Positions 1 to 9,384 of a stretch of DNA of 9,384 nt are shown one piece after another (position 1 is the stretch's first letter; every line of letters starts with the position of its first letter). The translations under genes were made by a program, and so were the position numbers. The stretch comes from an uncultured archaeon. GTDB lineage: Archaea > Iainarchaeota > Iainarchaeia > Iainarchaeales > 0-14-0-20-30-16. The stretch spans positions 1 through 9,384 of the forward strand of contig CAZMGA010000020.1 in the NCBI GenBank assembly GCA_964565725.1, read 5' to 3'. The notes beneath the pieces were generated by a model. The model saw only the letters and a list, made by a program, of their open reading frames with translations, did no database searches and was not told where the DNA came from.

Positions 1-3000
1 CCACAATCATTAAAAGTTAATAAATCATCAGGATTTGGACTTGTTGATTTTAAATAAGTTATTGCACTTTCATCCACCTCATAATCTGAATCACACGAAA
101 CTTCAAAATTTAGACTTTCAGCCCATTTTTCTGATTTTAATCCTACTGATGCATCAACACTTTCCTTTATTATTTTGTATTGATAATTATTTTGCCCAGT
201 TGCAACAAATAAAGATGCATAATTATCATCTTCATTTAAAGTAATTGAATTATTATAATCAATTAATTTAAGTGGAATTGCTTTATCTTTAATTATAACA
301 TATTTTGCCTCTTGATAATCATCAATAGACGGAATTACTCCTATAGCCATAAAAAAAGCAGCTACCGCTAATCCCGCACCAGCTACCCATCCCAATCCAG
401 GAATTTCTAATAAACCCATTATTAAAACTACTATTAACGCAGTTATTGCTACCGTTGAACCCGTCACAACAGAAGTAATAACCCCTGCATTAGTCATATC
501 CTGAACATTATTTCCAAATAATAATTCCTCACCATCACCAATTTTTATTCCATACCCACTTTTATCATCTTGTTTTTTACTTTCAGCTAACAAATTTGCA
601 AATGTATTTTCATTAGTTATACTTAATGCACCAGGTACATCCATATTATAAACTCTTAAAACATCTGAAACATAAATATCTTTATTTGAATTAGTTTCAT
701 CAAATATTGATGCCCCTTTAATTATAGTATCTTGCAACCTTTTATTTAATTCTTTAGAGTTTTCTAAATTAACATTTAAAAATGGATTATCAGAAAACAT
801 AAAATTGTTTGGCAAAGATGTTTGAACATTAGTTAAAATATTTTTTACTCTTTTATATGAATCCTCATCTTTTGTTTTACCATAAAGTTCTAAAGCATAA
901 GCACCAGAGACATTAGGTCTATTTATTTTAATTGTTTTATTACCTTCTAAACTTAAAATTTCTTTTGAATATAAATTCTCTCCTACCCCTTCAAATGTAA
1001 ATCCCACATAACCCTTATAATTTGTAGATCCTGAATTTAAATTATCGTAATATAAACCACAAGCTTCAGGTACTTTACCTTCATTATCTCTACAAATAGT
1101 AATATCTAAAGGCATATTACAGGTATTTTCTATTTGAATTTCAAATTGATTATCTGTATATAATGGATTAATATTTGTAGAATCAATTTCTCCTTTTACA
1201 GGTTCTAAAATTAAGGAATCAATTTCTTCACCATCTTTATTTTTTATTTTAATACAATCTTTAATATCCATTACTGAAACAGAAAAATCCAAAACATTAG
1301 ATTCAACTTTTTTAATTCCCGATGATGTTTTTATTGCACCTAATAAACTTAAAGATAAGTTTGTATTTCCATATACTCCTTTTGGAGTAAATTCTATAAA
1401 TCCATAATAAACATTATTTGTATTACCTTCCCAATTATTTACAAAAACTTTAGGGACAGAATAAATTAATTCTGTATTTCCAACAGAATTTAAAACAAAA
1501 GAATAATTGCCTAAACCTAAAGTACCTTTGTTATGTTTTAAAGTTGCATAAGCACTATTAAAATTAACTGGTGAAAAACTATTACCAATTTCATTTGAAC
1601 TTTCAATGCCACAAGTATTGTAAACTATTATAGGTATTGACATAGCTTTAGATCCATCACTAACAAAATTAGTATTATCAGAATTAAATCCTATAACTAA
1701 ACAATTATCTGCATTTGTAGGATAACCATCAACAATTAAATTTATTTCAAAAGGAACAATTCGAGTAAAAGATTTACCCTCAGTACTAAAATGCAAAGTT
1801 AAATAACCATTAATATTTTTCTTATTTGTAAGATCTTTAGCATAAACTTCATTTAAAGATGCTTTAAATAAATTATTTAATTCAGTTCTTGCTTCTCCTT
1901 CCAAAGTTGTAGAACCATCATAAACTAATTGCCTACCTTTTATTATTTTATTAGGATATGCATTTTTAATATAATTTTGCATCTCACTTATATCTAAATA
2001 TCCAGAATTATTATAAGAATAATTATCTATAACCAAATCAGAGTATTCATAAACAATATCCGAAGCAGTATTATTTATTAAAGTCAAACTATCAAACCCT
2101 TCTTTTGTAGATGGATAAGATAAATTTACTGTTAATATTTCAGGATCAAAATCAAACATTTTTACAGAAACTTCTAAATCATGTTTTTTATTGTAATAAG
2201 AATTATATCCTTCTTTGGAAACCAATATTTGAATATAGGTACCAGCAACTAAATCTTCTGCTTTTAATTCACAGTTAACAACACCTAAATAATCAGTAGG
2301 CATATCTTTACAGTATTTAACTACAGAATAATTTTTTGAAGTTGGTTTTTTAATTTTAAATGTAACTAAAGCATCCTTTAAAGTATTATTTTCAGAAGTT
2401 ACACTCACTTTAACATTTTGAGTAATTTCTGGCGCTAAAATTCTATCAGGAAATAATTTTACATTCATATCTTTTGATTCATTAACATTAAATAATAAAG
2501 ACAAAGCAGGTTTTCCTTTAACAATTATTTTTTTATCATCATCAACAATTAAAAAATTCAAATATGATTCTTCATTTATTATAGATGTTAAAACCATTTT
2601 TCCAGAAATATATTTATTAGAATAAAAATTATCAAATAAGTATTTTTCTAAAATAACACCAAAATAATTTTCTTTATAATTTTCTTTTTCTGTATTTGGT
2701 CCAAAAATATTTAAATCAGAAATTCTCAAAAAACTTCTTTCAGAAACATTTTCTTTTACTACAGCAAAACTTTCACCTTCTGTCAGCGCATTATAAATTT
2801 GTAAATAACCATTTTTTATTTTACCATCAGAATCATTTATACCATTTAAAATATCAAAATTTAATTCATAAACATGTCCTGAGTTTAATAAATAAGATTT
2901 ATCTTCATAAGTTTCAACATATAAATCGTCAGTTCTATCTAATAAAGTGTATCTTCCACAAAATTGGTCTGAATCACAAACTGAATTTGTGCCTATAGCA

Positions 3001-5207
3001 TAACTTTTAGATTCTTTATATTCACTAATATTATCAACAAACAATTCCCAATTAAAATTTAAAGTATCATATAATTTAACACTAGAATCATCTTTTACCT
3101 TTATTTTATAAAATACTCTATAAATACCCCTATCATCAACATCAAAAAAAGATTTTGCAACTTTTGCTTCACCAGTAGTTAATATTTCTTCTTCTAAATC
3201 TTCATATAACAAATCAGATTCTGCAGAAGTATAAGAATTAATAATAAAAAATTTTTCTTGATCTACTAATTCATTATCCCCTAAATTCAAATAAAATTCA
3301 AAATCATCATCAATATCATTAATTAAAATATCAAAACCTAAGTAATATTCTTTACCAATTGTTAAAGACTCTTTTGAACTAGAACTTATTTTTGAAAACG
3401 CACCTAAAAATTCTACACTTGAAGAATCTTTATTAGTTAATGGTTTCATTTTAATATCTTCTTCCCAATTTTCATTAGTAAATAAAAGTCTCGCTTCACT
3501 CACATATTTATAATAATCATCGTCATCATCTTCTACAACATAATAAATTTGATGACCTGATTTAAAAGAAGAATAAACATTACCTGAAATATTAGTTATT
3601 TTAGTACCTAAATTTTTTCCAGCTTTATTATAAAAACTTACTTTTGCACCAACTAAAGGATCATTATCTTCATCAAAAATATTTAAATTAATTAAAGAAT
3701 AACCAAAAGACATAGTTATATTCAAATCAATTTCAGGAATTTCACCAGCATTTGTTTGAGAGATTATAAAACTTTGACTAAAAGTTTCTGAAAATCCATT
3801 ATATAATCTTAATTTATAAACTCCTTCAGGAACTATAAAACTTGTTGCTCCATCTTCATCTGTATTATCAATATCGTATGAAATTAAATCAAATTGTGTT
3901 AAGTCATCAATCAAAAATACTTTTACATCTTCAACAGGATATAAATCTTCATCTAATACTTTTACATTTACTTTTGCTCTACTATATTCAGACATTTTTT
4001 TAACAAGAATTGTAAAATTAGTAGATGTACTTTTAATATCTAATTGATAATTAGATATAGGTGCTAAATCCTCATTATTTGGATTAAAATCTAAATAATA
4101 AATACCATAATCATAAACTGGCAAATCAATTTTATTATTGTTTACTGTCCCTTTATAGATTACTAAACCAGAAGAATTTTTTAAAGACAAATCACCTGAC
4201 AAATTATAAGAGCTAGAAAAATTTACATTTACATATCCTTTTGTTGGTTGACTTAATTGAATTTTAATTTCTGTTAATTCATTTTCCAAAATTTCAATAT
4301 TTACATAACTTGAAGCATTATCTTTAATAGCATAAACAGTATAACTACCAATTGGCAAATCAGAAATATTTGAAATACCTAAATTATTTGTGTTTGTAAT
4401 ATCTATTTCAGAACGTAAATCTTTAGAATCATAAACTTTTATTTTTACATTACTAATAGAAACACCTAATTCATTGACTACAATTACTTTTAAAGCTCCA
4501 TTAGATATATTTCCTTTTAAGTTATAAGTTATAGGACTAAATTCTAAACTACATGCTAAATTTTCACAAATTTGACCTGAAGTTAATTTATAACCTTCTA
4601 AACTAGGGGTAAATATAATATTTCCACAATTAGAAGGAACTTCTAAATTAGCAACACTATTTGTTACAATTAAATTTTTTGAAAAATTAGTTTTATCACA
4701 ATTAATTAATAAATCAAAATTTTTACTTAAATTAGAACCATCTATGTTTTGCATATAAACTGTAACGGGCATTAAAATTGTTTTATTTACTAAATTTATA
4801 GTTAAACTTTTTGAAAAATCATAAATATCTTTTTCAGTAGTATAATCTTCTAAATCTATTTCAGAAATAGTTATTGTTTTTGATTTTGGTAATTTTATTA
4901 TTCCAAAACCTTCTTCTGCATATCCTTCATATAATTTGCCATCAACTAAAACACTAAAATTAAAATTATCTATTAATTGAATGCCATTATTTTGAAACGT
5001 AAAAGAAACATCAGTTTTAGGACTATAAAGTAAAAAAAACAAAACTAAAAAAATAATTAACAAAAATAAAACTAAAAAAAAGACCATTGAAGGCATTACT
5101 TTGTCAATTTTATCAGTTAATTTCTTTATTGGTATCTTTGTATCAATTTTATCTATTAAATCATAATATTTATCTTCAACTTTATAATAAAAATCCAAAA
5201 AACCCAT
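1..5207 (-). CDS. Giant membrane-anchored surface/adhesin-like protein. The N-terminal 1,735 aa are visible and the 3' end lies beyond the left window edge.
   Basis: I reverse-complemented and translated this region by hand. ATG at 5207..5205 gives MGFLDFYYKVEDKYYDLIDKIDTKIPIKKLTDKIDKVMPSMVFFLVLFLLIIFLVLFFLLYSPKTDVSF... and the frame runs with no TAA/TAG/TGA down to position 3 (...KSTSPNPDDLLTFNDC), leaving 2 nt. An in-frame TAA lies upstream at 5306..5304. The track lists no minus-strand ORFs here, which fits one frame that never terminates inside the window. Codons are strongly A/T-ending, as in the neighbouring genes. The composition (N, S, T, Y, D, K rich), about 27 N-x-S/T sequons by hand count, and 16 Cys confined to the predicted ectodomain fit an extracellular protein. 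Confidence 0.9.
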   Translation of the reverse strand, partial: MGFLDFYYKVEDKYYDLIDKIDTKIPIKKLTDKIDKVMPSMVFFLVLFLLIIFLVLFFLLYSPKTDVSFTFQNNGIQLIDNFNFSVLVDGKLYEGYAEEGFGIIKLPKSKTITISEIDLEDYTTEKDIYDFSKSLTINLVNKTILMPVTVYMQNIDGSNLSKNFDLLINCDKTNFSKNLIVTNSVANLEVPSNCGNIIFTPSLEGYKLTSGQICENLACSLEFSPITYNLKGNISNGALKVIVVNELGVSISNVKIKVYDSKDLRSEIDITNTNNLGISNISDLPIGSYTVYAIKDNASSYVNIEILENELTEIKIQLSQPTKGYVNVNFSSSYNLSGDLSLKNSSGLVIYKGTVNNNKIDLPVYDYGIYYLDFNPNNEDLAPISNYQLDIKSTSTNFTILVKKMSEYSRAKVNVKVLDEDLYPVEDVKVFLIDDLTQFDLISYDIDNTDEDGATSFIVPEGVYKLRLYNGFSETFSQSFIISQTNAGEIPEIDLNITMSFGYSLINLNIFDEDNDPLVGAKVSFYNKAGKNLGTKITNISGNVYSSFKSGHQIYYVVEDDDDDYYKYVSEARLLFTNENWEEDIKMKPLTNKDSSSVEFLGAFSKISSSSKESLTIGKEYYLGFDILINDIDDDFEFYLNLGDNELVDQEKFFIINSYTSAESDLLYEDLEEEILTTGEAKVAKSFFDVDDRGIYRVFYKIKVKDDSSVKLYDTLNFNWELFVDNISEYKESKSYAIGTNSVCDSDQFCGRYTLLDRTDDLYVETYEDKSYLLNSGHVYELNFDILNGINDSDGKIKNGYLQIYNALTEGESFAVVKENVSERSFLRISDLNIFGPNTEKENYKENYFGVILEKYLFDNFYSNKYISGKMVLTSIINEESYLNFLIVDDDKKIIVKGKPALSLLFNVNESKDMNVKLFPDRILAPEITQNVKVSVTSENNTLKDALVTFKIKKPTSKNYSVVKYCKDMPTDYLGVVNCELKAEDLVAGTYIQILVSKEGYNSYYNKKHDLEVSVKMFDFDPEILTVNLSYPSTKEGFDSLTLINNTASDIVYEYSDLVIDNYSYNNSGYLDISEMQNYIKNAYPNKIIKGRQLVYDGSTTLEGEARTELNNLFKASLNEVYAKDLTNKKNINGYLTLHFSTEGKSFTRIVPFEINLIVDGYPTNADNCLVIGFNSDNTNFVSDGSKAMSIPIIVYNTCGIESSNEIGNSFSPVNFNSAYATLKHNKGTLGLGNYSFVLNSVGNTELIYSVPKVFVNNWEGNTNNVYYGFIEFTPKGVYGNTNLSLSLLGAIKTSSGIKKVESNVLDFSVSVMDIKDCIKIKNKDGEEIDSLILEPVKGEIDSTNINPLYTDNQFEIQIENTCNMPLDITICRDNEGKVPEACGLYYDNLNSGSTNYKGYVGFTFEGVGENLYSKEILSLEGNKTIKINRPNVSGAYALELYGKTKDEDSYKRVKNILTNVQTSLPNNFMFSDNPFLNVNLENSKELNKRLQDTIIKGASIFDETNSNKDIYVSDVLRVYNMDVPGALSITNENTFANLLAESKKQDDKSGYGIKIGDGEELLFGNNVQDMTNAGVITSVVTGSTVAITALIVVLIMGLLEIPGLGWVAGAGLAVAAFFMAIGVIPSIDDYQEAKYVIIKDKAIPLKLIDYNNSITLNEDDNYASLFVATGQNNYQYKIIKESVDASVGLKSEKWAESLNFEVSCDSDYEVDESAITYLKSTSPNPDDLLTFNDC
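330..482 (-). other. Internal Gly/Ala/Ser/Thr-rich transmembrane helical hairpin of the giant protein (aa 1576-1626)
   Basis: The sequence is VITSVVTGSTVAITALIVVLIMGLL-EIPGLG-WVAGAGLAVAAFFMAIGVIP, two ~22-25-aa hydrophobic segments joined by a 6-aa Pro/Gly turn. The Gly and Ala codons (GGN/GCN) account for the only conspicuous local G+C rise in the window. The ORF then continues in frame with hydrophilic sequence (SIDDYQEAKYVIIKDK...). Confidence 0.75.
798..2159 (-). other. Three successive ~150-165-aa ectodomain modules of unknown fold, each containing a h-x-h-x-N-(N)-T-[A/C] strand (aa ~1017-1470)
   Basis: The marker strands are LTLINNTASDIVY (aa 1041-1053), IPIIVYNTCGIES (aa 1192-1204) and FEIQIENTCNMPLDITIC (aa 1355-1372), spaced about 152 and 164 aa apart. 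Cys residues are paired or clustered at C1169/C1199 and C1363/C1372/C1383. The pattern resembles CARDB/NEW3-like all-beta domains, but I cannot confirm that without profile searches. Confidence 0.35.
2160..2432 (-). other. Additional isolated carboxypeptidase-regulatory-like module (aa 926-1016)
   Basis: The sequence is PEITQNVKVSVTSENNTLKDALVTFKIKK...CKDMPTDYLGVVNCELKAEDLVAGTYIQILVSKEGYNSYYNKKHDLEVSV. It shows the same strand/turn pattern, and the G-x-Y-x-h-x-h-x-x-x-G-Y ending is typical of that fold family. It also carries a Cys pair (C966/C979). Confidence 0.5.
3438..5012 (-). other. Array of six tandem ~87-aa beta-sandwich modules (prealbumin-like / carboxypeptidase-regulatory-like pattern), aa 66-590
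   Basis: A pattern of alternating hydrophobic strands recurs, followed by D/N-x-x-G and h-P-x-G-x-Y-x-h. Examples are ALKVIVVNELGVSISNVKIKVYD...NNLGISNISDLPIGSYTVYAIKDN (aa 238-297), AKVNVKVLDEDLYPVEDVKVFLID...NTDEDGATSFIVPEGVYKLRLYNGF (aa 411-472) and LINLNIFDEDNDPLVGAKVSFYNKAGKNLGTKITNISGNVYSSF (aa 505-548). The modules have diverged too far to give a DNA-level repeat. The fold assignment rests on motif recognition, not on a search. Confidence 0.6.
5025..5087 (-). other. N-terminal transmembrane signal-anchor of the giant protein (aa 41-61)
   Basis: The segment MVFFLVLFLLIIFLVLFFLLY is 21 uninterrupted hydrophobic residues. It follows a charged 40-aa tail ending KKLTDKIDKV and precedes SPKTD. 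I saw no obvious signal-peptidase or class III pilin-type cleavage motif. Confidence 0.8.
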
Positions 5208-5309
5208 AATAAATCTATTATAATATATAATTAAAGTATTTAAATATATGTTAGGAAGACTTTTTAAACAAAACAATGTGTTTTTATAAACTTTGAACTT
5301 TTTTTATTA
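5208..5309. promoter_or_regulatory. Divergent intergenic promoter region between the giant gene (-) and the beta-CASP gene (+), with archaeal TATA-like boxes
   Basis: A perfectly palindromic TATTTAAATA at 5237..5246 is centred ~34 nt upstream of the minus-strand ATG at 5207, which predicts a transcription start ~8 nt before that ATG. TTTTTATAAA at 5281..5290 is centred ~24-26 nt upstream of the plus-strand ATG at 5310, which predicts a leaderless mRNA. Neither start has a Shine-Dalgarno-like purine tract. In DNA this AT-rich, TATA-like words also arise by chance. Confidence 0.45.
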
Positions 5310-6305
5310 ATGTTAAAAATTAATTATAATAAATCCATTAATTTATGTTTAAACGAGTTAAATTTATCTTTAGATCCTATATCTAAAAGTGCCATTTCAG
5401 ACATAAATTTTGTGTCTCACGCCCATAAAGACCATATAAGTAAAAACACAAAAGAAAATTCCATATATTTTGGTACAAAACCTACTTTAGATATTGCAGA
5501 AATTTTGTTTAATGATCAAAAACAATCAAAAATATTGGAATTTAATAAAAATTACAAAATAGATAATTTAAGTTATAAAATAATTAATTCAGGCCACATT
5601 TTGGGAAGTTATTCATTAGTTTTAGAGTATAATGGTTCAAAAATTACAATAACTAGTGATATAAATACTTATAATACAACAACTACAAAAGCCACAATAC
5701 CCGAAGATACAGACATTTTAATTATTGAAAGTACTTATGGCTCAGAAAAAGACATTTTTCCAAAAAGAGATGAAGAATATTCTAAATTATTAAGATGGAT
5801 TTTATTAAATAGTTTAAATAATAAGTTGCCAATTATAAGTGCATATACATTAGGGAAAACACAAGAAATATTAAAACTAATTTGTGATAATACTAATTTA
5901 AAAACAGGCTTAACTAATGAAGCTTATGACATTTGTAATATTTACGAAAAAAATAATATTAAATTAAAAAACTATGAAAAAATTAATGGAAATGTGAATG
6001 AATTAGATTTAATGATTTTACCTCCATCTAAAATAAATAAAAGCTACATTCACGCTTTATCTACTATTTGTAAAAAAGACATAACTTTCGCGTCAACAAC
6101 AGGTTTAGGCTTAAACTTTGGTCAACAATTTAAAATTTCAGACCATAGTGATTTTAATGGATTAATTAATTATATAAAGGAAAGTAATGCAAAAACAATC
6201 TATACTTATCATGGAAAAGATGTAGAATTATCTCTTGCTTTAAATAAAAAATTGAATAAATTTTCAAAACCTTTAAGAGAAATTAAAAAAATAGAAATAA
6301 TTTAA
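5310..6305 (+). CDS. Short-form beta-CASP family metallo-beta-lactamase-fold nuclease (aCPSF2-like / ligase-associated-exonuclease-like), 331 aa
   Basis: The full motif set is present. Motif 1 is LSLDP (D22). Motif 2 is HAHKDH (aa 37-42, nt 5418..5435). Motif 3 is NSGHILGS (H96). Motif 4 is ITSDIN, followed by LIIESTYG. The beta-CASP segment PIISAYTLGKTQEIL matches the canonical P-x-F-A-x-G-R-x-Q-E pattern. Motif B is ISDHSD and motif C is TYHGK. There are no KH domains or C-terminal extension. The stop codon is TAA. Confidence 0.88.
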   Translation: MLKINYNKSINLCLNELNLSLDPISKSAISDINFVSHAHKDHISKNTKENSIYFGTKPTLDIAEILFNDQKQSKILEFNKNYKIDNLSYKIINSGHILGSYSLVLEYNGSKITITSDINTYNTTTTKATIPEDTDILIIESTYGSEKDIFPKRDEEYSKLLRWILLNSLNNKLPIISAYTLGKTQEILKLICDNTNLKTGLTNEAYDICNIYEKNNIKLKNYEKINGNVNELDLMILPPSKINKSYIHALSTICKKDITFASTTGLGLNFGQQFKISDHSDFNGLINYIKESNAKTIYTYHGKDVELSLALNKKLNKFSKPLREIKKIEII

Positions 6306-6384: not shown

Positions 6385-7407
6385 ATGGGATTTATAAAAG
6401 GACAATATATACCTACAGCAAATGAATTAATTAATACTGCTTTTCAAAAAGCAAGAACAGAAGCAGATAGAATAACTGATAAAGATTTAGCAAGTAAAAT
6501 AATTAATAAAGAAAAATTAAGAGTAAAAGTATCTGCCGAAGAATTAACATCAAAATTAAAAACAATAATTAATCAATTTCCTGATTTAAGTGAATTAAAT
6601 CCTTTGTATAGAGCATTACTAAAAAATACAATTGACATAATAAAATTAAAAAAAGCTTTAGGGCATTTAAATGCGTCATCAAGAACTATTGATGAATTAA
6701 AAAACAATACTTTAATAAAAATGTCTCGATCCAGAAGAGAAACAATTTCTAAAAACAGAAATGAATTTTATGGTAGAATAGTATCAGTAGTAAAAAGATG
6801 TGATTCTTCATTAAATGTTATAAAAAATGCAATGAAAGAATTTTCACAAATCCCTAAAATTAGAGACTTACCAACAATATTATTAATAGGATTACCTAAC
6901 ACTGGTAAATCTACTTTTTTACAAAAAATAACGAACGCAAATGTAGAAATTAAAAATTATCCTTTTACTACAAAAAGATTACAAGTAGGAAAAATTTCTG
7001 ACAAATATTTAGAATTTCAAATATTAGATTCACCTGGTTTATTAGATAGAACAGAAGAAAAACAAAACAAAATTGAAAAACAAACAACTATTGCTTTAAG
7101 AACTATTGCAAATTCAATAATTTTTATATTTGATGCTAAACAAAGTATAAAAAATCAATTAAACATATTAAAAAGATACAAAAAAGAAATTAAAGAAAAA
7201 CCCTATTTTGTAATTTTAAATAAAATTGATTTAGTAGATGAAAAAGAATTAAATGACATTAGAGATGAATTAAAAACATTGAAATCAAAGATTTATGAAA
7301 AATCGCTAAAAGATATTAGTGAAGAAGATATTAAATTATTTAAAAATGAAATTTATAAAATAAATAAATCTTGGTTTATTCAAAAGGGCAATGAAAAAAT
7401 AAAATAA
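6385..7407 (+). CDS. NOG1-family (Obg-like/TRAFAC) GTP-binding protein, archaeal short form, 340 aa, with a likely ribosome-biogenesis role
   Basis: The N-terminal NOG1 domain signatures are IPTANELIN and FPDLSELNPLYRALL. G1 is GLPNTGKST (nt 6889..6915), G2 is YPFTT, G3 is DSPGLLDR and G4 is NKID (nt 7219..7230). The block YPFTTKRLQVGKISDKYLEFQILDSPGLLDRTEEKQNKIEKQ is collinear with eukaryotic Nog1 ([32 protein letters not shown]...). The long eukaryotic C-terminal extension is missing, which is why I call it the archaeal short form. The stop codon is TAA. Confidence 0.92.
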   Translation: MGFIKGQYIPTANELINTAFQKARTEADRITDKDLASKIINKEKLRVKVSAEELTSKLKTIINQFPDLSELNPLYRALLKNTIDIIKLKKALGHLNASSRTIDELKNNTLIKMSRSRRETISKNRNEFYGRIVSVVKRCDSSLNVIKNAMKEFSQIPKIRDLPTILLIGLPNTGKSTFLQKITNANVEIKNYPFTTKRLQVGKISDKYLEFQILDSPGLLDRTEEKQNKIEKQTTIALRTIANSIIFIFDAKQSIKNQLNILKRYKKEIKEKPYFVILNKIDLVDEKELNDIRDELKTLKSKIYEKSLKDISEEDIKLFKNEIYKINKSWFIQKGNEKIK

Positions 7408-7446: not shown

Positions 7447-9384
7447 CTAATTTAATAACTTTTCAGGATTCCACCAAAAGGACAAACCTGCACCTTCGTA
7501 AGTCATACAAACATCATTAGTATCCATACCATTTATTATTTCTTCTAATGATTCATATTTTAGACCTTTTGGTACTGATTTAATAGTTGCAGAATCACTA
7601 GCTACCTTTATTTCTGGAACTACATTTGTAGATTCATTAGGAGCATAGAATATACCTCTATAATTTACATTATTTACAGTTCTTTGTAATACTTGTTCAT
7701 CCCATTCTAAACCATAAGTAATACCTTGTAATTGACTTACAGGTGCTACTTTTGCATTAGTACCTAAAGTATCTCTAACATAAACATTACTAGTATATCT
7801 ACTACCATCAAATGTTTTGCCTTCATCATTACTTGATCTAAATGTCCAATATATTAAAGAACTTCCAGCAGTTACTGTTTGATTATCTACAACAGTTTGA
7901 TAGAAAGCATAAGCATCACCATCATTTTGTTTTGTAATACTTAAATCAAATACAAATGGTTTACTCAAATATTTTATTATATTATATGTAGCTGTATTTG
8001 TTCCTGATTTAGGAGTTATTTTTAATAAATAACCATTATCTACAGTATTCATAGTTTGGAAATCTTGGGTAGAATCTAATTCTAAATGAACTATTGGAGT
8101 AGAGCTACTTCTTAATGAAGGTTCTAACCAATAATCTTCATCACTAGATGAAAATTTAACATTATCTGGATTTTCATCAACAGAGAAATCTATACCATAA
8201 CCAACTCTATCAATTACACCATTTACTACTCCTACTGTTGCATCCATAGGCATATAATACAAAGGATTTATTTCATGAGTAATAGGTTCTAAATATACTT
8301 TAATTTTAGATATTTTAGAATTAACAAAACTCCTATCATAATTATTAGGAAATATTGAAATATTATCAACAGGTTCATTAAAATCTATTACTAGATCTAC
8401 ATTATATTCTCCGGCATAAGGTAATTGATAACCTTCTGCTTGTATAGATTTATAAGCCATAGGCAAAAATTCTAATTTACCACTTGAAATTAAAGCTACA
8501 ATTTCTTTTTCATGTTGTACATTAGATAAAAATCCTGTTAAAACATATTCTTTGAAATCATTCATAAAATCAATAGTATAACCATCTTTCATTAAATTAG
8601 CTTTAAAATGTAATAAATTATAATCTTTAGAATTATATTTTAAATCTAATTCAGAAGTAGAAGTTATTTTTAAATCAGCAGATAAATTTAATTGTGTTAA
8701 TTTATCTCTAAATAATAATTCAGTTAATTGTGTAGCATCACAAAAATTATCTTTACAATTTACAGCATCATATTCCCAATTATAATTTACTCTTGGTTTG
8801 TTATTTGTACCTGTAATTCCTAATCTATTATTAGGTCCAAAACAACTATAACTTATAACATCTTGATATTGATTAGAATCTTGCATCATTCTAAATAATA
8901 ACATAAAAGTATCTCTACCAGTTGTTCTTTCATTTTCAGCAGGAGTTTCTATATTTTCTTTATAAACTTCTTGATCTTTTTTTGCTAATTCTCCTTCTTT
9001 ATCTATTTTACACCAACCAATTTCTTTTTCAACAATTTTTCCATCTTTTTCTAAATTGATAGCATCAATAGCTCCAATTACACTTGCTTTTGAACCATTT
9101 ACATCAGTATTCATTTTAGAAGTTGTCCCATAAAGAGATTTTAAAACATCAGTTTCTAAATACAATACAGCTGATTCAATTTTATTAACTTCATCAGATT
9201 TAGTTATTTTTATAGGATAATATGCATAAGTATTAGTTCCACTTTTTCTTTGATAAACATCCCAATCACCATCATTTAATTTATAATTTAAATCAAATTT
9301 ACTTGATTTTATAGAATCACCAGATAATTTATATTTTGCATCTCTTATTTCTGCTGAATTTAAATCTAAAGCTTTTACTTTTGC
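7447..9384 (-). CDS. Large orphan protein, probably secreted or surface-located. The C-terminal 645 aa are visible and the 5' end lies beyond the right window edge.
   Basis: The track starts this ORF at 9165, but that codon is TTG (caa on the plus strand at 9163..9165). The same frame continues upstream for 73 further sense codons to position 9384 (AKVKALDLNSAEIRDAKYKLSGDSIKSSKFDLNYKLNDGDWDVYQRKSGTNTYAYYPIKITKSDEVNKIESAV-LYLETD...) with no stop and the same composition. It ends ...GAGLSFWWNPEKLLN followed by TAG at 7449..7447. The composition is N/S/T/Y/D/G-rich and looks beta-rich. It has five Cys, including NCKDNFC. The visible part has no TM segment and no motif I recognise. Confidence 0.85.
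   Translation of the reverse strand, partial: AKVKALDLNSAEIRDAKYKLSGDSIKSSKFDLNYKLNDGDWDVYQRKSGTNTYAYYPIKITKSDEVNKIESAVLYLETDVLKSLYGTTSKMNTDVNGSKASVIGAIDAINLEKDGKIVEKEIGWCKIDKEGELAKKDQEVYKENIETPAENERTTGRDTFMLLFRMMQDSNQYQDVISYSCFGPNNRLGITGTNNKPRVNYNWEYDAVNCKDNFCDATQLTELLFRDKLTQLNLSADLKITSTSELDLKYNSKDYNLLHFKANLMKDGYTIDFMNDFKEYVLTGFLSNVQHEKEIVALISSGKLEFLPMAYKSIQAEGYQLPYAGEYNVDLVIDFNEPVDNISIFPNNYDRSFVNSKISKIKVYLEPITHEINPLYYMPMDATVGVVNGVIDRVGYGIDFSVDENPDNVKFSSSDEDYWLEPSLRSSSTPIVHLELDSTQDFQTMNTVDNGYLLKITPKSGTNTATYNIIKYLSKPFVFDLSITKQNDGDAYAFYQTVVDNQTVTAGSSLIYWTFRSSNDEGKTFDGSRYTSNVYVRDTLGTNAKVAPVSQLQGITYGLEWDEQVLQRTVNNVNYRGIFYAPNESTNVVPEIKVASDSATIKSVPKGLKYESLEEIINGMDTNDVCMTYEGAGLSFWWNPEKLLN

Follow-up and report, generated by a model that had tools for sequence, protein, structure and literature searches.

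An edge-truncated gene for a giant, probably surface-exposed protein of a widespread DPANN family

The window analysed here, a whole stretch of 9,384 nucleotides (nt) of DNA from an uncultured archaeon (contig CAZMGA010000020.1), carries an edge-truncated gene along its first 5.2 kb, which we call gene A (1..5207, minus strand). Its 1,735 codons appear to be the 5' ~71% of a gene for a giant surface protein, with nt 1-2 forming a partial codon. We favour, at a probability of roughly 0.55, the view that the product works at the cell surface as a long tether or adhesin, or as a strut of the envelope, in contact with another surface. As judged from homology searches, the product belongs to a giant family that is widespread among DPANN archaea and undescribed; the kind is familiar (giant immunoglobulin (Ig)-repeat surface proteins), and the family adds two conserved modules without known relatives. 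These modules, an N-terminal motif (N-motif) and a C-terminal module of ~780 residues (C-module), are by the same comparisons the most conserved non-repeat parts of the gene A protein.

A stop-free frame that leaves the window

The initial annotation had described an uninterrupted minus-strand frame of at least 1,735 codons, skipped by the list of open reading frames (ORFs) for lack of a stop inside the window and too long to be chance. Translation from ATG 5207..5205 gave 1,735 sense codons and no in-frame stop down to position 1. Across these 5.2 kb, the remaining five frames have 94-305 stops each, and their longest open stretch is 113 codons. At the local base composition the stop probability per random codon is 0.0998, and 1,735 open codons would be expected by chance with a probability of ~1e-79. 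The ORF lister returned five ORFs in the whole window and omitted gene A because frames without a stop inside the source go unreported. All three statements are thus upheld. The listed plus-strand ORFs at 35..244 and 2696..2998 run antisense within gene A and gave no matches.

Upstream of gene A, an in-frame stop lies at 5306..5304, and ATG 5207 is the first ATG after it; the sole alternative start is a TTG at 5276. ATG 5207 is the likely start because homologues of gene A begin at the same 'MG(F/L)...' residues. Direct reading of the sequence places an A/T-rich intergenic region (5208..5309, no strand) between gene A and a divergent beta-CASP gene. The region includes a TATA-like TTTAAATA at 5244-5237 (minus strand), ~30 nt ahead of the ATG, a putative promoter of a type of string that is common at 20% G+C. 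G+C is ~20-31% across the window, reaching 0.31 in nt 1-500 and staying at 0.22-0.25 in the remainder of gene A. Nucleotides 1-500 encode a hydrophobic hairpin and the start of the C-module, and the rise is probably explained by the Gly/Ala-rich coding of the hairpin. Non-coding DNA or a recoded genome was rejected, as the standard translation table 11 gives clean genes throughout the window, in which we found no tRNA, Rfam family or meaningful tandem repeat.

Gene A is collinear with giant proteins of DPANN archaea

A first homology search returned two full-length relatives of 2,413 and 2,417 residues (41-42% identity, 95% of the query covered). Full-length relatives of gene A measure 2,413-2,453 residues and come from metagenome-assembled genomes (MAGs) of DPANN archaea ('Ca. 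Diapherotrites'). The closest one found, P0029 (PIU22524.1, 'hypothetical protein COT14_00730 [Candidatus Diapherotrites archaeon]', 2,453 residues), is 46-48% identical to the gene A product, and residues 1-1726 align without a break to its residues 1-1702. The reach of this alignment suggests that ~700 C-terminal residues of the gene A product lie beyond position 1 and that the full product would measure ~2,400-2,450 residues. Gene A is likewise collinear, without breaks, with two further orthologues (P0001 and P0002, 41-43% identity) and, at ~20% identity, with dozens of proteins of 2,300-2,700 residues; a scan of genome contigs added a 39%-identical relative, and by phmmer the window protein was collinear with 58 retrieved family proteins. 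Gene A has in common with this unnamed family the N-motif, the transmembrane (TM) anchor, the collinear stalk, the same Cys pairs, the hydrophobic junction and the start of the C-module, and differs from it by sequence divergence only. Judged by its 1,735 codons without a stop and by its break-free collinear homologues, gene A is a real, edge-truncated gene.

The surroundings of gene A bear on the same question. In four independent contigs (L001, L002, L003 and L005) the gene order is kept as in the window: the giant gene, a divergent beta-CASP/metallo-beta-lactamase (MBL) gene of 326-332 residues, a NOG1-type GTPase and a gene of ~810-845 residues. Gene A lies on a short contig and is truncated, as it might be if it were a pseudogene, an open frame in non-coding DNA or the product of a chimeric assembly. 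Such an artefact is nevertheless scarcely credible given the ~1e-79 chance of the open run, the break-free alignment to three independent full-length orthologues and the synteny with the beta-CASP gene, NOG1 and the last of these genes (B-type, below) in all four contigs. In addition, an independent Logan contig (SRR8925755_48931, 2,135 nt) carries an identical 331-residue beta-CASP neighbour and, at the position of gene A, a divergent 199-codon gene. No other contig was found to hold this neighbour, and nearly identical DNA is present in the sequencing runs SRR8925755 and ERR14964779. In searches towards the missing left part of gene A, an exact 44-nt pattern did not occur in metagenome_contigs or viral_contigs, and no record of the NOG1 protein was found.

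A conserved N-terminal motif precedes a predicted signal anchor

The N-motif MGFLDFYYKVEDKYYDLIDKIDTKIPIKKLTDKIDKVMPS (residues 1-40; 5088..5207, minus strand) is conserved and precedes the anchor, its consensus (…YYxLEDKYYxxLDKIDxxIPxxKIxDxIDKVxPSF) being followed directly by a TM helix. A hidden Markov model (HMM) of the motif (alignment A5) scored 95.7 bits on the window ORF, and the motif is still recognisable in relatives of only ~20% identity. Motif and helix are visible at the N-terminus of nearly all of the 40 listed giants; a strict regular expression recovered 39 of 100. The motif had no Pfam match. Its HMM also matched giants without a C-module, namely proteins of 2,150 and 1,092 residues in L001 (L001:13293-23040) and of 2,321 residues in a further locus (L004:2995-9960). 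That the motif heads such proteins suggests that N-motif and TM helix form a more general anchor module, common to a superfamily of giant DPANN surface proteins.

The helix itself, TM1 (MVFFLVLFLLIIFLVLFFLLY, residues 41-61; 5025..5087, minus strand), is a predicted signal anchor with its N-terminus inside. Its mean Kyte-Doolittle value over 19 residues is 3.62, and it is kept in all homologues. Because the large region that follows has cysteines in pairs and beta-sandwiches of kinds that surface proteins typically have, the N-motif is predicted to be cytoplasmic and the large region extracellular (type-II, N-in topology).

The stalk is a string of beta-sandwich domains

The ectodomain stalk (residues 62-1465; 813..5024, minus strand) consists of ~1,400 residues of predicted tandem beta-sandwich domains of prealbumin-, Ig- or macroglobulin (MG)-like type. 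From its length we estimate ~14 domains and ~50 nm if extended. We modelled residues 536-1735 with AlphaFold2 (AF2) on 31 family sequences; residues 549-1465 came out as nearly all strands, at a predicted local distance difference test score (pLDDT) of 75-92. A CarboxypepD_reg-like beta-sandwich (PF13620, residues 239-318; 4254..4493, minus strand) scored 31.8 bits on the window protein against a gathering threshold of 32.3, and the equivalent site of P0001 scored 51.9 bits, P0001 passing the thresholds for CarboxypepD_reg and Big_1. Weaker Pfam matches of gene A were SpaA (19.9 bits versus a threshold of 23.1), bMG3 (18.5 versus 34.9) and a hint of MG4. Searches of gene A, of gene B (below) and of their profiles against Pfam, NCBIfam and PDB sequences returned nothing beyond generic beta-sandwich domains, and gene A showed no catalytic domain.

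Foldseek searches of the stalk model against the PDB returned only arrays of Ig and MG domains (E 5e-19 to 1e-10): hydin-type ciliary proteins, complement C3/C5, alpha-2-macroglobulin (A2M) and CD109, bacterial A2M and mastigoneme; NOMO2 was matched by sequence (1.4e-6). TM-scores were ~0.1, and therefore only the repeated domain type is common to the stalk and its matches. A2M, complement C3/C5, CD109, hydin and NOMO are strings of prealbumin-, MG- or Ig-like beta-sandwiches, as gene A is predicted to be. One alternative reading is a surface-anchored protease trap of the A2M/complement type. The Foldseek matches (E 1e-15 to 1e-10 for A2M, CD109, C3/C5 and bacterial A2M) and the weak bMG3 and MG4 hints point that way. 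The TM-scores do not, and neither the window protein nor P0001 or P0029 has the thioester motif CxEQ (C[GLASV]EQ). An alpha-helical thioester domain is missing from the confident part of the model (residues 549-1465) and a thioester domain from the C-termini of the orthologues, no A2M-family Pfam match exceeded its threshold, and the end modules of gene A are unrelated to those of A2M-type proteins. We consider a protease trap very improbable.

Seven Cys pairs run along the stalk (170/194, 214/219, 744/750, 966/979, 1169/1199, 1318/1363 and 1372/1383), most of them conserved family-wide. In alignment A6, four cysteines (C170, C194, C1199 and C1318) are invariant and four more (C744, C750, C1169 and C1383) almost so. 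The conserved cysteines are even in number and lie on both sides of the hairpin, as would fit a surface location. N-x-S/T sequons are not enriched (28 versus 24 +/- 4 predicted from composition). In a scan of the window protein, P0001 and P0029 for five motifs (CxEQ, HExxH, GxSxG, LPxTG and PGF), the first two proteins had none, and one GxSxG in P0029 was the sole match. A sortase-assembled or isopeptide (SpaA-like) pilin was rejected, as LPxTG is absent and SpaA scored below threshold.

These data bear on the remainder of the initial annotation, which had proposed an archaeal surface protein with an N-terminal membrane anchor, a beta-sandwich stalk, 'Cys-paired distal domains' and no recognisable catalytic motif, of a class essentially uncharacterised. 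The hydropathy of TM1 agrees with the anchor, and the AF2 model of residues 549-1465 and the Pfam and Foldseek beta-sandwich matches agree with the stalk. Pfam and NCBIfam searches and the motif scan of the window protein gave no catalytic motif, and the relatives in DPANN MAGs fit an archaeal origin. No Pfam or NCBIfam model covers the N-motif or the C-module, and we found no publication on this giant family in the literature searched, consistent with an uncharacterised class. The cysteines are indeed paired; their confinement to distal domains did not hold, for the pairs run all along the stalk. The N-motif, predicted to be cytoplasmic, the hairpin at residues 1584-1625, the C-module and a standalone paralogue at 7447-9384 are additions to that reading.

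A hydrophobic hairpin leads into the C-module

After the stalk comes a linker (residues 1466-1583; 459..812, minus strand) of pLDDT <50 and of variable length across the family. It is followed by a Gly/Ala-rich hydrophobic helical hairpin, STVAITALIVVLIMGLLEIPGLGWVAGAGLAVAAFFMAIGVI (residues 1584-1625; 333..458, minus strand), delineated by Kyte-Doolittle analysis (means of 2.38 and 2.19) and by the AF2 model, in which helices at 1586-1599 and 1609-1621 are joined by the uncharged turn EIPGLG. Of 92 giants, 48 have a TM-like hydrophobic segment at the junction, 34 an intermediate one and 10 a weak one. Glycine-zipper motifs, which Kim and colleagues are said to have described for membrane-inserting proteins in 2005, offer a comparison: as in glycine-zipper hairpins (C19orf12-like, PF20721), gene A has a Gly/Ala-rich helix pair with GxxxG spacing, here beside the C-module, but its own hairpin gave no Pfam match.

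The hairpin is followed by the acidic motif IDDYQE…. The acidic junction IDDYQEAKYVIIKD and the first ~110 residues of the C-module form the last part of gene A in the window (residues 1626-1735; 3..332, minus strand). The assignment relies on alignment to P0001, which extends up to residue 1667, and to P0015, whose residues 10-247 match residues 1512-1735 of gene A. The module measures ~780 residues, ~700 of which lie beyond the left edge in the copy of gene A; from the orthologues P0001, P0002 and P0029, gene A would carry the full module. A C-module HMM was without significance on the ~110 in-window residues, where only the start of the module is present.

A second, free copy lies in the same window, ~2.2 kb from the start of gene A. 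Gene B (7447..9384, minus strand) comprises the C-terminal 645 codons of a standalone C-module protein of ~783 residues and runs off the right edge with its frame open. The encoded protein and the C-terminal ~780 residues of the giant orthologues are homologous (BLASTP 2e-15 with the C-terminus of P0001) and have in common the motifs G.TG..KP.V.Y.W, YCDATQF, LM.DG…DF.NDF, FYY.P…G…R.GYG and a terminal C…F.WNP. Compared with P0006 (783 residues), gene B shows 94% protein and 96% DNA identity and starts at residue 134, so that only the first 133 residues are missing from the window. The ratio of non-synonymous to synonymous substitution rates (dN/dS) between the two is 0.42, which suggests relaxed or diversifying selection. 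Orthologues of gene B occupy the same syntenic position in L002, L003 and L005 and are complete proteins of 783-845 residues with an N-terminal hydrophobic helix and, ahead of the module, a Gly-rich hydrophobic stretch similar to that of the giants. The architecture is also found split: in L004, a stalk-only gene (P0004, 1,704 residues) is directly followed by a 964-residue C-module gene. Because the module occurs free in the gene B orthologues and in this split pair, we regard it, as far as gene architecture tells, as an autonomous unit that is both fused and free.

Structural searches gave little to compare the C-module with. Its 37 standalone members had no Pfam match (three of them showed weak C19orf12-like matches, below threshold), and there was no PDB sequence match. 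An AF2 model from 10 sequences was weak (mean pLDDT 55), with an alpha/beta part and a terminal beta-sandwich at pLDDT 65-85, and this model, at its pLDDT of 55, found no fold match in the PDB or BFVD at E <= 0.001.

The family is large and forms gene arrays

An exhaustive search with a C-module profile recovered 739 cluster representatives (50% identity) at E <= 1e-3, 449 of them at E <= 1e-30. Among the best 150 of the 739, 97 are proteins of 1,800-3,251 residues with the module at the C-terminal end, and the remainder are mostly standalone forms of ~780-1,100 residues. The median length of 92 giants is 2,427 residues. Word-index homology searches had found only 5, 6 and ~14 true relatives, which suggested rarity; they under-reported the family because low-complexity or SpaA-like repeat proteins swamped the candidates. 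Family members, such as PIU22524.1 (COT14_00730), MBI4043422.1 and MDO8537984.1, are named 'hypothetical protein' or 'carboxypeptidase regulatory-like domain-containing protein' in DPANN MAGs.

Genomes carry several such genes in tandem. One MAG (locus tags COT14_) has at least two paralogues. L004 is a tandem array of genes for 2,696, 2,321, 1,704 plus 964, and 2,426 residues, and L007 one of 2,468, 2,925, 2,352 and 2,447 residues that takes up ~4.3% of a 719-kb contig; such arrays make up ~4-4.5% of contigs of ~0.7 Mb. Within the L004 array, a 558-residue protein (L004:1114-2790) without a Pfam match starts with MFIKNKKGFNLFTALISLMLLSITIVF, which looks like a class-III (type IV pilin-like) signal peptide.

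At three distant loci the giant arrays are followed by the same block of small genes (L006:8297-13269, L007:24493-27059 and L008:17276-21762). The block encodes five small polytopic membrane proteins (~78-135 residues, no Pfam match), a coiled-coil protein and a protein of 507-522 residues with a weak match to the DUF87/HerA central domain (E = 0.011). After it, L006 and L008 have a coiled-coil protein of 143-144 residues and then DNA polymerase B. It could represent a dedicated apparatus for export or assembly, or its recurrence could be conserved synteny and nothing more.

Neighbouring genes and archaeal origin

Divergent from gene A, the window encodes the 331-residue MBL/beta-CASP protein (5310-6305, plus strand). 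Its best NCBIfam match is a ligase-associated DNA-damage-response exonuclease, at 123 bits far under the cut-off of 325, and it has weaker matches to Cas14-MBL/aCPSF1 models. The next gene (6385-7407, plus strand) encodes a NOG1-type GTPase with NOG1_N, MMR_HSR1 and NOG1 domains. NOG1 is an archaeal and eukaryotic ribosome-biogenesis GTPase. From this NOG1_N- and NOG1-bearing GTPase and from the relatives in archaeal MAGs, the organism is, by its gene content, archaeal and of DPANN type. The relatives are named 'uncultured archaeon' or '[Candidatus Diapherotrites archaeon]'. Their contigs measure 0.6-0.72 Mb, as would fit the small genomes of DPANN archaea.

Between the conserved genes of the related loci we observed variable insertions of toxin-antitoxin pairs (HicAB, PIN/RHH), and AbiEii in L005; the sites are L001:4497-4939, L005:6711-7365 and L006:10097-10571. 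Variable insertion of this kind suggests a recombination-prone neighbourhood.

Discussion

What might such a protein do? In the tether or adhesin reading that we favour, the N-motif would remain on the cytoplasmic side and may there bind a partner or an insertion machinery. The string of beta-sandwiches would form a disulfide-stabilised extracellular stalk, a rigid spacer tens of nanometres long, and would present the hairpin and the C-module as its working end. The contacted surface would most plausibly be that of a host cell, and the product would have no enzymatic activity of its own. Host attachment is a role that we infer; the data would suit a part in an S-layer-like structure or in the envelope equally well. 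Several points weigh against the reading. Should the hairpin be embedded in the membrane of the cell itself, the stalk would become a loop and the C-module would lie close to that membrane, contrary to a distal head. Members of the family are collinear and nearly constant in length, which suits a structural part of the envelope more than an adhesin under fast evolution. The C-module as working end is an assumption, given its poor model and lack of a fold match, and most of the module of gene A lies outside the window. Finally, the host-dependent lifestyle of this organism is argued from its relatives.

An S-layer-like scaffold is a possible, if clearly less probable, alternative. Gene A would then encode a constitutive structural element, a membrane-anchored strut, and the C-modules and the standalone B-type protein would form an outer canopy and set the width of a pseudo-periplasm, without host recognition. 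Length and domain order are conserved among members only ~20% identical, several paralogues lie in tandem, and a free C-module protein could co-assemble with an anchored one. Archaeal S-layer proteins usually have a cleavable signal peptide and a C-terminal anchor or PGF-CTERM/archaeosortase signal; canonical ones rank among a cell's most abundant proteins and form a 2-D lattice. Gene A, in contrast, lacks a cleavable-looking signal peptide, its orthologues have no C-terminal TM helix or PGF motif, and its sequons are not enriched. The putative DPANN S-layer proteins NEQ300, Micr_00292 and MJ1_0160 and the Sulfolobales proteins SlaA and SlaB are, like gene A, rich in Ig folds, extracellular and without recognisable sequence families. 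Compared by description, they are ~1,000 residues long and bear signal peptides, C-terminal anchors or both; gene A has an N-terminal anchor, a conserved and probably cytoplasmic motif, an internal hairpin and a separate C-module, and its ~2,400 residues (2.4x longer) are far above the ~1,000 of the DPANN candidates. According to the literature searched, no DPANN S-layer protein has been determined, and large DPANN surface proteins are general candidates for host interaction or for the S-layer.

The position of the hairpin separates two further possibilities. TM1 and the hairpin could both lie in the cell's own membrane, making an arch of the 1,500-residue stalk and placing the C-module beside the membrane, where it would work with the small polytopic membrane proteins and the HerA-like ATPase in export, uptake or the formation of intercellular bridges. 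In the clade of the window, the hairpin segments equal true TM helices in hydrophobicity (Kyte-Doolittle 2.2-2.8), the standalone C-module proteins also combine an N-terminal hydrophobic helix with a Gly-rich hydrophobic stretch, and the small-gene block recurs behind giant arrays at three distant loci. We consider this arrangement unlikely: about half of the family has a merely weakly hydrophobic junction, the turn between the helices (EIPGLG) bears no positive charge, the block was not seen beside the closest relatives of the window and may be mere synteny, and the DUF87 match is at E = 0.011, with no Walker A seen on reading the sequence. Alternatively, and to our minds quite unlikely as well, the protein could bridge two membranes. 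With TM1 in the symbiont, a ~50-nm stalk would bring a glycine-zipper hairpin and the C-module to the host cell, and the hairpin would insert into the membrane of the host much as a fusion peptide or a pore former does. The standalone C-module protein would be a co-factor, and a cytoplasmic or membrane partner would be linked to the device through the N-motif. If true, such a device would initiate the cytoplasmic bridges or the transfer of lipids and metabolites that are observed between DPANN archaea and their hosts.

Returning to the tether reading, a parallel by size and setting might be sought in the SPEAREs of Nanohaloarchaeota, in which Hamm and colleagues reportedly found, in 2019, protease and restriction-endonuclease-like domains. 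Both are very large surface proteins of small-genome DPANN archaea with a proposed role in host interaction, but gene A and its orthologues measure ~2,400 residues and are without such Pfam domains, a comparison of lengths and domains and not of the sequences themselves. We rejected SPEARE identity on two grounds: no serine-protease or restriction-endonuclease-like match was found in Pfam or NCBIfam, and the orthologues have 2,413-2,453 residues. SPEAREs are surface proteins of >5,000 residues (bioRxiv 10.1101/2025.05.02.651781).

ORF tracks that drop edge-truncated frames hid 76% of the coding content of this window. The wider context is how DPANN archaea hold their hosts and draw resources from them; to our knowledge, none of their envelope or attachment proteins has so far been determined by experiment. 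The family described here occurs in hundreds of DPANN lineages with a fixed architecture, and its N-motif and C-module would be concrete targets for work in cultivated DPANN co-cultures.

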